Shown here: one piece after another, positions 6,398-39,880 of the stretch
Position numbering within the stretch: position 1 is the first letter of the stretch
Layout of the letters: the number at the start of each line of letters is the position of its first letter
DNA from: Escherichia phage JL1
Sequence record: JX865427
Direction: 5' to 3' (one strand)
DNA length: 43,457 bases
Program-made: the position numbers and the translations under genes
The notes under the pieces: generated by a model
Told to the model about the DNA's origin: nothing
The model's input: the letters and a program-made list of their open reading frames with translations, nothing else
Databases searched by the model: none

Positions 6398-6424
6398 GTT
6401 CCGCCCTCCTGTTGGTGTGCAACC

Positions 6425-6453
6425 AATATAGCAGGGTGCCGGGGTGGATGCAA
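6425..6453 (-). promoter_or_regulatory. sigma70-like promoter TTGCAT-17-TATATT
   Basis: Read on minus strand; -35 embedded in ATTGGTTGCAT, second ATTGGTTGCA copy immediately after -10; ~20 nt upstream of RBS/ATG at 6397. Confidence 0.55.
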
Positions 6454-6612
6454 CCAATATTAATCACGCGCATGAAAAAGTTGATCGCTATCTGCTGTGA
6501 CTGCAAATTGCATTTTTCGCCCCACGTTCTGCATCTTGCATTGGTTGCCTAGTTCAGCGACGACCGCAATCCGCAACATGCTGCCGTATATTTTGCAATC
6601 CCGGATTTTATG

Positions 6613-6783
6613 CAGTCTCAGACGAGGGGGGTGACAGACCCCCCGTCTAGTCTGAAAGACTGGGAGTTGTCCCGCCTGTCCCGCTCCCCGCCAGGCCGCG
6701 TAATCCGGGGCGGGACAGGGGTGCTGTCCCGCCTTGTCCCGCCCCTGGTTTGTCCCGCTTTTTGTCCCGCTTACTTTATGCAG
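6613..6783. repeat. structured iteron element, copy A (52-bp hairpin module + 7 TGTCCCGC octamers)
   Basis: 52 nt identical to 33957-34008; contains G6/C6 hairpin, agtct-gaa-agact hairpin, octamers in both orientations including palindrome GGGACAG-N5-CTGTCCC. Confidence 0.8.
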
Positions 6784-6876
6784 TTTTATTGCATAACTAT
6801 GCATTATATTCACACTACACGGCAACCAATGCGACCAGCTAAAAGCACACAAAATGGCAACCAATGCGCGCAAAAT

Positions 6877-9141
6877 TTAATCTTTCAGGTCATCATCTGT
6901 CGCAGAAAGCGTGATGGGGATATCCGATTTGATGACTAAATTCGACGACCCATATATGGCCCCGGTGTGCGGATCTGTATAGAAACCAATCACGCCGCGC
7001 TCGACCATATCGTCGATTGCCTTCGTCGAAGTGCCACCCTTAGCGAGTCCCGCCTGGCGGACAATTGCCGATTTACTGAAACCAGTATGGTCCGGGTTAT
7101 CTTCCATCAGTTTTTCCAGGGCCGCATAGAGCACTTTCTCTTTTTCGTTGCGCGGACCGGCGGCGTTTTCCTCCTTAACCGCTGCTTTGCCCGCGGCCTT
7201 CGCCTGTTCTATAGCGAACGGAGCCAGGGCGACCGGAACGAGGTATAAAGTCTCGTCGCGTGGCGTGGACGCAATTGGTTTGACGTCCCAACCGGCAACA
7301 ACGTCTCCGAAGTCCGGCCCGGTGCTGGTGGACTGGTGCGCCTCGAACGCTTCTGACTTGCGGAGATCCACCTTCACCTTGCACTTGAGCAAGACGAAGC
7401 CACGCGGCGCTTGCTTGATGCCGTTACGTGATTTTTCGTGATACAGGTTAAGTTGTCCCGGCTGGTTGTCGTCCGGTTGTTCCAGGAAGAACGCAGAATC
7501 AACAGCACCATGCAGCGCACCGGATCCGCGTGGGGTTCTGCTGCCGTTTGCACCTTTCGCGGGGTGGTGGATGACGCCCGCACTGCCACCTGTATTTTCC
7601 GCAATGGCTTTCAGCGCTTTGACCACTTCACCCATATCGCTGGCGTTGTTCTCGTCGAACGGTTTAGCCTCGGCGGACCGCAGCGCAACAGTCTGGTTGA
7701 GTGAGTCGAACGCCACCAGGCCAACTGGTTCGCCGTTAGCGGTGCGGTTGATGAAGCTGATAACTTCGCGCAAGCCGGATTTGCTGGTGATATCCCAGCC
7801 GCGTGATTGCAGATCGATAATGTGCAGCTTGTCCAGGTCGTGCTCGTATTTAATCTGCAATGCTTCTTTACGCTGATTTGAGGCTTCGCCACCTTCCGCA
7901 TCGAAATAGAAGCAATGCGACTGGACTACCTTCGCACCACCAAACGGAATACCAGCGGCAACCGCACCCATCTGCCCCAGCACATAGAAGGACTTGCCGA
8001 TGTTCGACTCGCCCGCCATATACCAGGTCGATTTAAAGTTAATCAGACCTTCGATGATCGGGTCGTGTTTACTGAATAGTGCGACCGGCTCGTTATCCAG
8101 ATCCGCATCGGTGCACACGCCGTATTCTTCGCCGTCACCAACCGCATCAACAATATGCTCGTATAAGGATTCGACTTCCTCGTCGTCCAGCCCCGGCAGG
8201 ATGGCGGCGATTTGCTTACGGGACATATTGTGTGGCTCGACGTTCAGGTGGTCCGGGATACCTATAAGACGTAGCGCCAGGTGCTGGTGTCTATTCAGTT
8301 CCGAGCAACACTCGTTGCCGGTGTGCATACACTTGAAACGGATCTCGCCATCCTTGACCATGATAGCCGTTGACCCTTCGCCGCTGTGCAGATGTTCGTT
8401 CGGGCACGGCACTTCATAACCGCGACCGGACGACAGCGGTTCGAATCCTGCCTGGAAGCACCAGTCCAGAATACCGTCCGCCACTGCGTCGTCGCCCTGG
8501 GTAAGCTCGCGGCGTACTTCCTCCTTCTCCACCCCCAGCTTGTCCGCCAGGCGCAGCAGACGACGCACACTGGCGCGCTTGCCGTGGTGGCACTTAATGA
8601 CAGACTGCTGGTGTGGTAGGTACATAAGACGGTTTGTGTCTTTCGTGCAGTCGTCGAAGTCCACATCCGACAGACCAAGTTGGTGTAATAGAGCATACTG
8701 GACACGGCCCAGGTCTTCCGCCGGGACAGGCTTATCAGTGAGCACCAGGAAACGGGCGCAACGCGTTCCGCCCTTCAGCGGGTGGCGGTCGCCGGTAGTG
8801 GTGTGGAATACGTGCTCCAGCCCCGCGTCGATGAAAGCCTTACGGCAGCGGCGTAAAGTGCGGGTGTCGGTGCGGTCAATATCGAAGAACAGGATCGAGC
8901 GGTCCACCGCACTGGTCTTACGACGCAATCCGTCACTGGTATACGCCACGATGCCGTCGGCCTTACGCTTGCGGCGCGCATACTCGGCTTTATCTTCTGT
9001 CTTGTTGATATGCACCGAGGAGATTTCTTTCGCATCTTTGATAAATTCGAAAAATTCATCGGTGGTCATCTGGAAGTTTTCCGCCCTGGCTTTTTCGCCT
9101 TTTTTAGCGGGTCGTGTTACAGCGAATTTAATTAAGCTCAT
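6877..9141 (-). CDS. DNA primase / RecA-family replicative helicase fusion
   Basis: 754 aa; Walker A GESNIGKS in central ATPase domain, N-terminal primase-like region, C-terminal putative DNA-binding region. Confidence 0.8.
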   Translation of the reverse strand: MSLIKFAVTRPAKKGEKARAENFQMTTDEFFEFIKDAKEISSVHINKTEDKAEYARRKRKADGIVAYTSDGLRRKTSAVDRSILFFDIDRTDTRTLRRCRKAFIDAGLEHVFHTTTGDRHPLKGGTRCARFLVLTDKPVPAEDLGRVQYALLHQLGLSDVDFDDCTKDTNRLMYLPHQQSVIKCHHGKRASVRRLLRLADKLGVEKEEVRRELTQGDDAVADGILDWCFQAGFEPLSSGRGYEVPCPNEHLHSGEGSTAIMVKDGEIRFKCMHTGNECCSELNRHQHLALRLIGIPDHLNVEPHNMSRKQIAAILPGLDDEEVESLYEHIVDAVGDGEEYGVCTDADLDNEPVALFSKHDPIIEGLINFKSTWYMAGESNIGKSFYVLGQMGAVAAGIPFGGAKVVQSHCFYFDAEGGEASNQRKEALQIKYEHDLDKLHIIDLQSRGWDITSKSGLREVISFINRTANGEPVGLVAFDSLNQTVALRSAEAKPFDENNASDMGEVVKALKAIAENTGGSAGVIHHPAKGANGSRTPRGSGALHGAVDSAFFLEQPDDNQPGQLNLYHEKSRNGIKQAPRGFVLLKCKVKVDLRKSEAFEAHQSTSTGPDFGDVVAGWDVKPIASTPRDETLYLVPVALAPFAIEQAKAAGKAAVKEENAAGPRNEKEKVLYAALEKLMEDNPDHTGFSKSAIVRQAGLAKGGTSTKAIDDMVERGVIGFYTDPHTGAIYGSSNLVIKSDIPITLSATDDDLKD

Positions 9142-9151
9142 TGCCGTGGCC

Positions 9152-9481
9152 TTACTTAGAAGTTTTATTATTGCGTACCCAGGAGCGCACTGTGCTCTGA
9201 TTAATCCCAGTCAACTCGGCAATCATCGCCCAGGATTTGCCCTCGGCGCGCAAACGGATAACCTGTTTTTTATATTCTTCCATTTCTTCATTGTGCTTCT
9301 GCAGCTTGCTCGCCGCTGTACCGTTGAGCAATTCCAGCCTGGCGCGTAATTCTTTTTCTACACTGCGCAGGCGCTCGACCTCAAATAGCACCGCCCCAAC
9401 GGCATCGGTATAAGCCCACGACCGGCTTGTTTCACTGCTAACAGTCTTCGTTAACATTTCGATTGCGTCGTTTATATTCAT
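9152..9481 (-). CDS. HTH transcriptional regulator
   Basis: 109 aa; C-terminal HTH (SWAMIAELTGINQSTVRSWV); first gene transcribed leftward from the divergent control region. Confidence 0.6.
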   Translation of the reverse strand: MNINDAIEMLTKTVSSETSRSWAYTDAVGAVLFEVERLRSVEKELRARLELLNGTAASKLQKHNEEMEEYKKQVIRLRAEGKSWAMIAELTGINQSTVRSWVRNNKTSK

Positions 9482-9505
9482 TGCTCTGCCCTCAGTTGGT
9501 TAATG

Positions 9506-9541
9506 ACCAACGAAACTACACCTAAAACCGCAAGGTGTCAA
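9506..9541 (-). promoter_or_regulatory. promoter TTGACA-17-TAGTTT with near-palindromic operator gttggttaatgaccaac (9495-9511)
   Basis: Read on minus strand upstream of the HTH regulator; 8-1-8 inverted repeat with one mismatch overlaps -10/TSS. Confidence 0.45.
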
Positions 9542-9553
9542 ATCCTTTGGATA

Positions 9554-9581
9554 TTGAAACGGGTGCGCACGCGTGTAATAA
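9554..9581 (+). promoter_or_regulatory. candidate promoter TTGAAA-16-TAATAA
   Basis: Plus-strand hexamers ~30 nt upstream of an ORF-free stretch ending in an intrinsic terminator. Confidence 0.35.
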
Positions 9582-9612
9582 TAATTCCCGTCTCATTGTC
9601 TCTTATTGGTTA

Positions 9613-9649
9613 GCGCCGTCGCATTTTGCCTCGGCGCTTTTTTTTTTTG
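9613..9649 (+). terminator. rho-independent terminator (stem gcgccg/cggcgc + T11)
   Basis: Hairpin followed by eleven T residues on the plus strand; no plus-strand CDS upstream. Confidence 0.55.
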
Positions 9650-9658
9650 AAATTAGTT

Positions 9659-9687
9659 GTTGACTCCCTTCTGCAACCAATCTAATA
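9659..9687 (+). promoter_or_regulatory. strong sigma70-like promoter TTGACT-17-TAATAT for the rightward operon
   Basis: Near-consensus hexamers with T-rich upstream tract; TGCAACCAAT motif fills the spacer. Confidence 0.6.
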
Positions 9688-9884
9688 TTCACTCCGTCGA
9701 CAGGATGCAGGACGCAAACTGGAGAGGGGCAACGCAGGGGCCGGATCGAAGTGTCAGGATTCCCAACCGTGATTATATAACCAGGTCCACTACCCGAAAG
9801 GGAGAACGCGTAACCTGGCTCTATGTTAAGGCCACCGACGAAGTTTACTGCCGACACCTAAACTTAACCAATCGGAGATATACC

Positions 9885-10427
9885 ATGTTTGAGCAAATCG
9901 TAAACCTGATCACTCGCGGCGTAGTAGCACTGGAAACCATCGCTAAACATTATGAAACTGTGGGCGCTGCCGTAGACCCAAAAGCAAACGGCACTGCTAA
10001 GAAAGGCAAGGCCAAGCCGGATACTGAAGTCGAAGACGACGATCAGGACGAAGTCGAAGATACGCCTAAAACGAAAAAAGGCGCGGCAAAAGAAACCAAG
10101 TCTAAAGGAAAGGCCAAAAAACAAGTCGAAGAGGATGACGACGAGGATGATGAAGCCGAAGACGAAAAACCGGCGAAGGGTAAAAAAGCACCAGCGAAAG
10201 GCAAAGGTAAGAAAGATGCCGATCCGCTGGCAGAGATGCGCGACGAGATCAAACAGTATGCCGCTATTATTGCAGGCGGCGATGATGATGATGCGAACGA
10301 CGAATTCGACGACCTGCTGGAATCGTTCGAGATCAAATCAATCGCTAAACTGGAAGACGACGACGTCGAAGACTTCCACACCGAGCTAAAAGAAATCGTC
10401 GAAACTTATTTCGAACTGGAAGACTAA
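9885..10427 (+). CDS. highly charged acidic protein (hypothetical; first rightward gene)
   Basis: 180 aa, long D/E runs interleaved with K-rich segments; GGAG RBS 7 nt upstream of ATG at 9885; alternative in-frame ATG at 9704 lacks RBS. Confidence 0.6.
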   Translation: MFEQIVNLITRGVVALETIAKHYETVGAAVDPKANGTAKKGKAKPDTEVEDDDQDEVEDTPKTKKGAAKETKSKGKAKKQVEEDDDEDDEAEDEKPAKGKKAPAKGKGKKDADPLAEMRDEIKQYAAIIAGGDDDDANDEFDDLLESFEIKSIAKLEDDDVEDFHTELKEIVETYFELED

Positions 10428-20206: not shown

Positions 20207-20673
20207 AATTACTGATTTGTGATCTGGATGGCGTTATTAATGGATCAAGCGATGCGCGCGCCGACCTGGTGCCGGGGATAAAAACGAAATCCACCTTTTG
20301 GGCGAAGTGGCACAAAGCGCACGTCCGCGAAGACCTGAACATGGATATGCTGCCGCTACTGCGCATGTATAAAGAGCAAGGCTTCGAGATCGCGTATCTG
20401 ACAAACCGGCAGCGCGAATGCTGGGACACCACCGCCGAGCAATTGGAGGTCTTCCCGGTCGGCCGGTTGTTTATGCGCCACATGCTGGACGACACCCCGC
20501 CGCCAGAGTTTAAGGCGTGCGCCGTGTTCAAAATGGTCTGCTACGCGGACGTGTCTGAACTGGTCATCATTGAAGATTGCGAGAAGAACATCGCGGCAAT
20601 TCGTCGGGCGTGTGGTGATTTGGTCCCGAAAATTTACGCAATAAACGTTGCAAAATTCACTTGCAACCAATAG
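20203..20673 (+). CDS. HAD-superfamily phosphatase-like protein
   Basis: Motif I DLDGV at N-terminus; downstream LTNR and acidic motifs. Confidence 0.6.
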   Translation: MKLLICDLDGVINGSSDARADLVPGIKTKSTFWAKWHKAHVREDLNMDMLPLLRMYKEQGFEIAYLTNRQRECWDTTAEQLEVFPVGRLFMRHMLDDTPPPEFKACAVFKMVCYADVSELVIIEDCEKNIAAIRRACGDLVPKIYAINVAKFTCNQ

Positions 20674-39740: not shown

Positions 39741-39880
39741 GCTATCCCCCTGGGATTGTGGCAAAGCGGGCCACCCGCTTGACTTCACGCCTTAATATTA
39801 TCAGTGATAAAAATAATCGCAAAATTCGCTTGCGCTGCTGGAATTGGTTGCACACCAACATAGATATGAAGGAAAACAAA

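Follow-up and report, generated by a model that had tools for sequence, protein, structure and literature searches.

A conserved promoter-to-terminator unit between the divergent gene blocks of dhillonviruses, a probable gene for a short non-coding RNA

The sequence analysed here, 43,457 nucleotides (nt) of Escherichia phage JL1 (record JX865427; hereafter the window), belongs to Dhillonvirus, the virulent coliphages resembling HK578 and SSL-2009a: a BLAST search of positions 9100-10000 against GenBank phages returned 174 records at 80-99% identity, almost all of them Escherichia, Shigella or Sodalis phages of this genus (HK578, SSL-2009a, SO-1 and BASEL phages such as TheodorHerzl). Dhillonviruses are virulent siphoviruses of about 44 kb. 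In a gap of 403 nt that separates two divergent gene blocks lies a unit of 95 bases, consisting of a promoter (P1), a short transcribed segment and an intrinsic terminator, which is probably a functional stand-alone gene for a non-coding small RNA (sRNA) of about 57 nt, specific to Dhillonvirus. The leftward block starts with a protein of 109 amino acids (aa) with a C-terminal helix-turn-helix (HTH) domain (HTH_23, E 2e-7), followed by a 754-aa primase-helicase; the rightward block starts with a 180-aa protein (ATG at 9885) and has a PD-(D/E)XK/DUF2800 nuclease among its genes. The domains recognised in neighbouring proteins are HTH, AAA_25 and PD-(D/E)XK/DUF2800, while other neighbours have none. 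As originally predicted from the bare sequence, the unit is placed between the leftward promoter of the HTH regulator (P_L) and a strong rightward promoter (P2), and no plus-strand gene lies upstream of it: in phage UAE_MI-01, which is 97-98% identical, the nearest annotated one is about 2.8 kb away, with leftward genes only in between. P_L and P1 stand back to back, their -35 hexamers 12 base pairs (bp) apart, and transcription from P_L is predicted to start near 9507, about 80 nt left of the sRNA, and to run leftward. The GenBank record of HK578 annotates the equivalents of P_L, P1 and P2 each as a promoter, and that of WF5505 annotates the hairpin as a terminator; none of the GenBank records has an RNA gene over the unit, and two of them put open reading frames (ORFs) for a 'hypothetical protein' there. 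The coordinates are collected in Table 1.

Table 1. Features at and around the unit, with sequence variability among dhillonviruses where it was determined. Positions are those of the window.
Feature	Position	Strand	Diversity	Variable positions	Description
P1, -35 hexamer TTGAAA	9554..9559	+	0.01	1/6	from promoter scan; 32 distinct relatives
P1, extended -10 TGT-AATAAT	9574..9582	+	0.0	0/6	17-nt spacer from -35; TG at -15/-14; hexamer 9577-9582 invariant
Discriminator, -10 to predicted +1 (7 nt up to G9590)	9583..9589	+	0.25	7/7	only fast-evolving stretch of the unit; substitutions and 1-nt indels
Predicted sRNA transcript	9590..9648	+			GUCUCAUUGUCUCUUAUUGGUUA, hairpin and U-tail, ~55-59 nt; +1 predicted
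5' seed, 23 nt, G9590 to A9612	9590..9612	+	0.008	2/23	single-stranded, pyrimidine-rich; unpaired in minimum-free-energy and centroid structures
Terminator hairpin	9612..9638	+			7-bp outer stem (A-U and six G-C), 2x2 internal loop, 3-bp inner stem, UUU loop
U-tract T11	9638..9648	+			G at 9649; length 8-14 among relatives; -12 to -22 relative to P2 -35
P2, TTGACT-17-TAATAT	9660..9688	+			strong; sequence match, annotated in HK578; 11 nt after U-tract
P_L, TTGACA, 17 nt, TAGTTT	9541..9536 and 9518..9513	-			from sequence; equivalent promoter annotated in HK578
Candidate target 1, start region of HTH regulator gene	9478..9502	-			duplex of 7+6+7 bp over UAACCAA, Shine-Dalgarno (SD) sequence and AUG
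Candidate target 2, start region of first rightward gene (ATG 9885), UAACCAAUcGGAGAUA	9865..9880	+			8 bp, one mismatch, 7 bp over SD
Third codon positions, regulator gene			0.26	83/109	
GCAACCAAT copies	3380, 5689, 6419, 6450, 6540, 6822, 6857, 9673, 16171, 19113, 19130, 20663, 23751, 39843	both			

P1 matches the consensus of sigma-70 promoters at 10 of 12 positions and has in addition the TG of an extended -10 element. It had first been read as TTGAAA-16-TAATAA, and both of these elements are present (TAATAA at 9576-9581), but AATAAT with a spacer of 17 nt is the better reading. The region was gathered from 50-odd dhillonvirus loci (GenBank, IMG/VR and metagenomes), which gave 22 distinct versions of the RNA and 32-35 of the wider region. 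Among these the two promoter elements are practically fixed, the discriminator varies like synonymous sites (0.25 and 0.26, respectively), and the 23 nt that follow, in which one U-to-C substitution and one 1-nt deletion are the only changes, vary about 30 times less than the discriminator next to them. Conservation starts at G9590, 8 nt 3' of the P1 -10 element, and P2 shares this geometry, with a G 8 nt after TAATAT; promoter geometry and the onset of conservation together suggest that +1 is probably G9590. The sharp drop in variability at the predicted +1 indicates that selection begins exactly where the P1 transcript should start. As a separate observation, the P1 spacer (9560-9576) is G+C-rich and contains a perfect 14-nt tract of alternating purines and pyrimidines, GTGCGCACGCGTGT, with GCGCGCACGCGTGT in most relatives, which is partly palindromic; a tract of this kind is not usual between promoter hexamers and might mark a site for a regulator or an element that responds to supercoiling.

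The terminator, proposed initially as a strong one made up of a hairpin and a run of 11 T, is borne out by folding: 9589-9649 folds at -16.7 kcal/mol (z = -3.7; 1 of 200 dinucleotide shuffles folds as well), with the hairpin as its sole structure and the first 23 nt unpaired. A simple terminator scanner missed this hairpin, the apical part of which is above the scanner's loop limit of 8. A check of structure and covariation across related phages had been suggested with the original prediction, and in it each of the 22 distinct sequences keeps all 10 pairs (220 pair cells, 100% paired), while control structures slid by 1-3 columns are paired in 33-61% of cells only. Two outer pairs show compensatory double changes (G-C to U-A and G-C to C-G), both in a single lineage, and one inner pair changes from A-U to G-U; the remaining substitutions in the hairpin fall in the 2x2 internal loop, i.e., at unpaired positions. 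A bidirectional terminator was considered and rejected: read on the minus strand, the hairpin is preceded by a run of A and not followed by one of T.

Hairpin and T-run might instead serve the DNA around them, as an insulator that stops stray rightward transcription and provides P2 with an A/T-rich upstream (UP) element, P1 being a decoy or competitor that modulates P_L through RNA polymerase occupancy and its transcript being functionless. The T-run indeed ends 11 nt upstream of the P2 -35 hexamer and the intervening 10 nt are invariant, the mere 12 bp between the -35 hexamers of P1 and P_L make competition plausible, and no convincing unique target for the RNA was found in the phage. However, an insulator requires no promoter directly upstream of it, no plus-strand transcription enters from the left, and 23 unstructured transcribed nt that are so much less variable than the discriminator, and that look complementary to a ribosome-binding site, are left unexplained. 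This account, of which the original prediction had offered the insulator as its alternative, is therefore unlikely as a replacement for the sRNA gene: a pure insulator needs only the hairpin and the T-run, not an invariant P1 and 23-nt arm. As an additional function it can hold, and the T-run may double as an UP-like A/T element for P2.

The claim that no ORF lies inside the unit holds with one qualification: two ORFs, of 36 aa (9503-9613) and 42 aa (9535-9663), overlap it. Many relatives lack these frames or have them interrupted. The 36-aa ORF is open in roughly half of the relatives, and in many its middle part is in another frame (WNIETGAHACNNT against WILKRVRTRVIII), with +1 and -1 indels on the two sides; elsewhere it is truncated, missing or fused to the frame of the T-tract. 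A third ORF, of 24 aa, which starts at 9597 on the minus strand, is also cut by 1-nt indels, and among relatives no conserved ORF was found over the unit on either strand. A small-protein gene, in any of these three frames, was accordingly rejected on account of the frame-breaking indels: nucleotides are conserved here and peptides are not. That the 36-aa or the 24-aa ORF encodes the functional product is extremely improbable even though the ORFs do exist, with the 36-aa frame open in about half of the relatives and annotated as a hypothetical protein in TheodorHerzl (a related ORF is annotated in CHD5UKE2), since, besides the shifted or missing frames, ATG 9503 has no SD sequence and lies upstream of P1. 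The sRNA, if confirmed, would correct the spurious 'hypothetical protein' annotations found at this place in several GenBank records.

At a coverage of at least 80%, the module is found in 153 GenBank phage records, to be compared with 155 records in which the primase-helicase is at least 80% identical; all of the 153 are dhillonviruses by similarity, a few of them under other host names. The unit is therefore essentially genus-wide, and by this measure essentially every dhillonvirus carries it; it is also present on IMG/VR and metagenome contigs of about 44 kb. The block of approximately 9536-9704, which comprises P1, the RNA and P2, stays intact while both flanks are exchanged, the left one among three unrelated regulator N-termini and leaders (the 109-aa type, and the HK578, CHD5UKE2 and ERZ1034949-type regulators of 142-169 aa) and the right one between a long and a short leader before the first rightward gene. 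Outside the genus, pattern scans of IMG/VR and metagenomes gave dhillonvirus-type contigs, together with a few non-homologous or chimeric short contigs that were set aside, and no distant homologues, and searches guided by the regulator and primase-helicase proteins gave dhillonviruses only. In the nearest syntenic outgroups, Cornellvirus FSL SP-031 and Eiauvirus eiAU, the primase-helicase is 44-47% identical and a small HTH protein and primase likewise face a divergent operon, and no comparable unit was found in their intergenic regions. Rfam 15 gave no match at gathering thresholds in the whole window and nothing credible at E up to 10 in 9480-9900, the best sub-threshold scores being those of STnc480 (20.6 bits against a threshold of 72, opposite strand) and ncS54 (18.1 against 43). 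When the RNA was compared by blastn (E up to 10) with 5,426 complete genomes of E. coli, nothing matched, which rules out only matching stretches of about 20 nt or longer; among 185,579 species genomes scanned by pattern, a single match that looks like chance turned up, in a metagenome-assembled genome of Dehalococcoidia. No description of this RNA was found in the literature on Dhillonvirus, HK578 and phage-encoded sRNAs, Hfq and lytic phages. It would thus be a new phage-encoded base-pairing sRNA, and, as far as these searches show, none has been described before for this phage group.

Several points weigh against a dedicated RNA gene and have to be set beside this evidence. Both ends of the transcript are predictions, the overall divergence across the genus is modest, and the covariation in the stem comes from one lineage only (LM40P1-like, two sequences) and represents few events or one. 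Moreover, the sequence match of P1 is by itself within chance, 4 promoter-like sites occurring in 2.5 kb where 2.3 are expected, and the case therefore rests on comparative data; among the sequences compared, it is the conservation pattern, and not the promoter match, that raises the unit above chance. On this comparative evidence, namely the boundary at +1, the preserved P1, the covariation in the stem and the lack of a conserved ORF, the small RNA of about 60 nt originally predicted is favoured over the insulator.

As to what such an RNA might do, its layout is of the Hfq type, with UCUCUUAUUGGUUA 5' of the hairpin, then the hairpin and then 8-14 U. A U-rich stretch, a terminator hairpin and a poly-U tail form the Hfq-binding module of enterobacterial base-pairing sRNAs. 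The complement of the seed reads UAACCAAU-AAGAGA-CA-AUG-AGAC, that is, a motif, an SD-like sequence and a start codon. When the seed was paired with the 63 annotated start regions of UAE_MI-01, the duplex energy averaged -12.1 kcal/mol, whereas shuffled seeds averaged -10.2 +/- 0.7 and none of 300 came as low, and eight start regions reached -17 kcal/mol or less where shuffled seeds give 1.1 (again 0 of 300); this level is attained by 12.7% of start regions and 2.4% of internal gene windows. The duplex with the regulator mRNA (-19.1 kcal/mol) ranks second among the start regions, 8 of 1000 shuffled seeds being as good, and in WF5505 the corresponding site has 16 contiguous bp (-23.1 kcal/mol, 0 of 1000 shuffles). 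That with the first rightward gene has -17.9 kcal/mol (6 of 1000 shuffled seeds as good), and its site is present in the long-leader and short-leader mosaic types alike. A plus-strand direct repeat of 15 nt, GTCTC(C/T)TATTGGTTA, connects the leader of the regulator with the sRNA gene; its copies lie 110 bp apart and match at 14 of 15 positions in WF5505 and at 11 of 15 here. The only substitution seen in the seed, U15 to C in TheodorHerzl, would turn a predicted G.U pair with the regulator mRNA into G-C, which is weak evidence.

The specific targets in the flanking operons are nevertheless the weak part of the case and can be put forward only tentatively, as a good many observations speak against them. 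In a whole-genome duplex scan the best non-self site reached -23.0, no better than shuffled seeds (-19.7 to -24.5), and a search for near-exact complementary sites in the phage genome, allowing up to 3 mismatches, matched only the gene itself. Of the shuffled seeds, 12% do as well as the best match among start regions, that of gp28 (-20.5). The excess in start regions is in part trivial, in that a CUCU-rich seed meets purine-rich SD sequences. Regulators of the HK578 type pair less well (-14.4, 66 of 1000; -16.4, 24 of 1000). AACCAAU has disappeared from the rightward start region in the LM40P1 lineage, in which the 1-nt deletion in the sRNA is not compensatory (-13.4, 67 of 1000); more generally, a search for co-variation of seed and target met a seed that is too invariant, the one divergent lineage showing no compensatory pattern. 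The arrangement of UAACCAA and SD sequence occurs also in Edwardsiella phage eiAU, which has no sRNA, from which it follows that the motif has a function independent of the sRNA and predates it. Finally, the seed contains AUUGGUU, complementary to a DNA motif that the genome has in excess, so that part of the conservation of the seed could act at the DNA level.

This motif deserves a description of its own. The 9-mer GCAACCAAT has 14 copies in the window, on both strands, against 0.5 expected, and its core AACCAAT (ATTGGTT on the other strand) has 21 against 5.1. Several copies take the form of TTGCAACCAAT followed by a -10-like hexamer 17-18 nt later (e.g., at 20663, TTGCAA-18-TATAGT), a form that points to a promoter or operator box peculiar to the phage. 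Six copies in both orientations, including three GGCAACCAATGCG repeats by an A/T-rich stretch, lie in 6400-6870, between the stop of the primase-helicase gene (6877) and the next leftward genes, and this iteron-like cluster beside the primase-helicase gene is a candidate replication origin. A palindrome, TTGGT-N5-ACCAA, occurs three times (9496-9510, 6412-6426 and 39844-39858) where 0.02 copies are expected. The copy at 9496-9510, which is absent from phages with a different type of regulator, covers the predicted start of P_L, and owing to this position it is likely the autoregulatory operator of the 109-aa HTH protein. That protein (9152-9481, minus strand) goes in GenBank by the varying names of 'transposase', 'resolvase' and 'DNA recombination nuclease inhibitor gamma'; Pfam finds in it a C-terminal DNA-binding domain of the HTH_23/HTH_28/sigma-70 region 4-like kind and nothing else, and the names are therefore probably annotation drift.

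Given these motifs, the invariant 23 nt could be a DNA operator at which a phage DNA-binding protein regulates P1 and P2, the RNA being incidental. The TTGGTTA within the seed is a half-site of the palindrome and is related to GCAACCAAT, of which one copy lies in the P2 spacer; the excess of all three sequences, the palindrome over the P_L start and the HTH protein encoded next to it all suit such an arrangement. On the other hand, the seed has the 7-nt half-site only, without a GC prefix or a palindromic partner, and this explains no more than a third of the invariant stretch; the 23 nt are unchanged in phages with unrelated sequences in place of the regulator and the P_L operator region; and the boundary of conservation coincides with the predicted +1 and not with a symmetric site. 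An operator in place of an RNA is thus quite improbable.

If the unit is indeed an sRNA gene, host sigma-70 RNA polymerase would start at P1, probably at G9590, once the phage DNA enters the cell, and P1, being near consensus with an extended -10 and no obvious operator, should fire immediately on infection. Transcription would stop at the intrinsic terminator, at about 9644-9648, and the product would have a free, invariant, pyrimidine-rich arm of 23 nt, a G+C-rich hairpin and a U-tail, its dependence on Hfq being suggested by this layout. The most likely action would be pairing of the seed over the SD sequence and start codon of mRNAs, by which translation would be blocked. The best candidate targets would be the first genes of the divergent flanking operons (the HTH regulator with the primase-helicase, and the first rightward early gene), in which case the accumulating RNA would impose a delayed negative feedback on the translation of one or both early operons; host mRNAs would be possible further or alternative targets. 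In its most ambitious and rather doubtful form, this scheme has one constitutive, minimal riboregulator of about 57 nt, placed between divergent early promoters and directed against ribosome-binding sites, that, as it accumulates, shuts down the translation of both early operons and so acts as an RNA-based switch from early to middle expression; the same doubtful version would give it a role comparable to that of the protein RegA of T4 and an origin by inverted duplication of a ribosome-binding site, and in it the RNA might also titrate Hfq or act on host mRNAs. The interest of the unit is that of a genus-wide sRNA in a virulent and experimentally convenient group of coliphages: dhillonviruses are common, grow easily on E. 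coli K-12 and are represented in the BASEL collection (Bas14 and others), which makes direct genetic testing possible, and confirmation would reveal an RNA layer in the early gene control and replication-gene dosage of a virulent siphovirus. To our knowledge, very little is known about base-pairing RNAs of virulent coliphages.

On the other side of P2, a non-coding element of about 160 nt, 9696-9855 on the plus strand, extends from the predicted P2 +1 and lies upstream of ATG 9885. Its core is 78-94% identical in unrelated phages, about 170 GenBank records in all, including Drexlerviridae (slyngel, swan01, tunus, KMI8 and 'Pseudomonas' phage Motto), Murrayvirus Lumpael, Enterobacter phage Arya, Serratia phage MQ-4 and others; in all four phages looked at in detail it fills an intergenic gap of 200-240 nt, right after a promoter-like site and with different genes downstream. 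Invariant blocks include GGAGAGGRGCRACGCAGGGGC, GGATTCCCAACCGTGA, AGAACGC and CCGACGAAG, and between them lie helices with strong covariation: for the closing stem at least 8 different pairs of complementary sequences occur, a stem of 5 bp has 10 variants, 9 of them fully complementary, and a GNRA-type hairpin has 4 stem variants. No Rfam family matches 9696-9855, and short-leader dhillonviruses are without the element. The element has the look of a structured leader RNA of phages that has not been described before (a riboswitch, a ribozyme or a translational element?), and it may be more novel than the sRNA unit. If read from an in-frame ATG at 9705, the first rightward ORF gains 60 codons that span this leader (9705-9884), and several GenBank records annotate the long form, of about 230 aa; the extension is interrupted in other relatives, and therefore the real product is likely the 180-aa protein from ATG 9885. 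The ribosome-binding site of this gene is UUAACCAAUCGGAGAUAUACCAUG, which resembles the leader of phage T7 gene 10.

Among known systems, one of comparable architecture is found in phage lambda, where 6S RNA comes from pR'-tR', a constitutive promoter that has a strong terminator close behind it and an operon downstream. Constitutive promoter, strong terminator within tens of nt and position upstream of an operon are common to both (lambda 6S RNA is mentioned in PMC12197685). The likeness raises the possibility of a regulated leader, in which P1 transcripts would read through to the rightward early genes under a phage antiterminator and the 57-nt RNA would be a by-product. Here, by contrast, a strong and independent second promoter, P2, 11 nt past the terminator, already serves the operon; in addition, the folded transcript contains no alternative antiterminator pairing that would overlap with the 5' stem, none of the neighbouring genes examined is Q-like or N-like, pause or Q-binding-element (QBE)-like features were not identified, and the transcribed part is seed-like rather than a pause-inducing -10 repeat. 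As the terminator is not the sole barrier, a Q-type antitermination unit was rejected, and a regulated leader in the wider sense is very improbable.

In size and organisation the unit is comparable to lambda OOP and P22 sar, ORF-less transcripts of 60-80 nt with their own sigma-70 promoter and intrinsic terminator in a control or replication region (PMC12197685). However, OOP and sar are cis-antisense RNAs that overlap cII and ant and are fully complementary to them, while nothing conserved lies opposite the RNA described here. The cis-antisense class was rejected for this reason, as there is no conserved ORF opposite, P_L runs leftward from about 9507 and the rightward genes are on the RNA's own strand. 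With regard to target recognition, the c4 RNA of P1 recognises ant by means of a short repeat. In the c4 RNA of P1 and P7 and the CI RNA of P4 the target site is a short repeat of the RNA's own sequence, as would be the case with the 15-nt direct repeat noted above, which, lying on one strand, makes the divergent transcripts complementary over the target ribosome-binding site (for a summary of c4 RNA see PMC12197685). Both c4 and CI are, however, processed from longer transcripts and belong to temperate immunity systems, whereas the present RNA would have its own promoter and terminator in a virulent phage and has no Rfam c4 match.

A functional parallel would be with the Hfq-dependent sRNAs of phages and prophages, such as lambda PreS, vibriophage VP882 VpdS, DicF and AgvB/AsxR (PMC12197685), which are likewise independent short units with an unstructured conserved seed, a U-rich stretch, a Rho-independent terminator and a long U-tail, and which pair imperfectly at ribosome-binding sites, as is predicted here. 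The dhillonvirus RNA has no sequence or Rfam relationship to them and is very short, with about 57 nt and a single hairpin, its binding to Hfq being a prediction. Characterised phage sRNAs come nearly all from temperate phages or prophages (PMC12197685), as do those just named, whereas the host of this RNA is a strictly virulent siphovirus, and its best candidate targets would be not host genes but the early operons that flank it in the phage.

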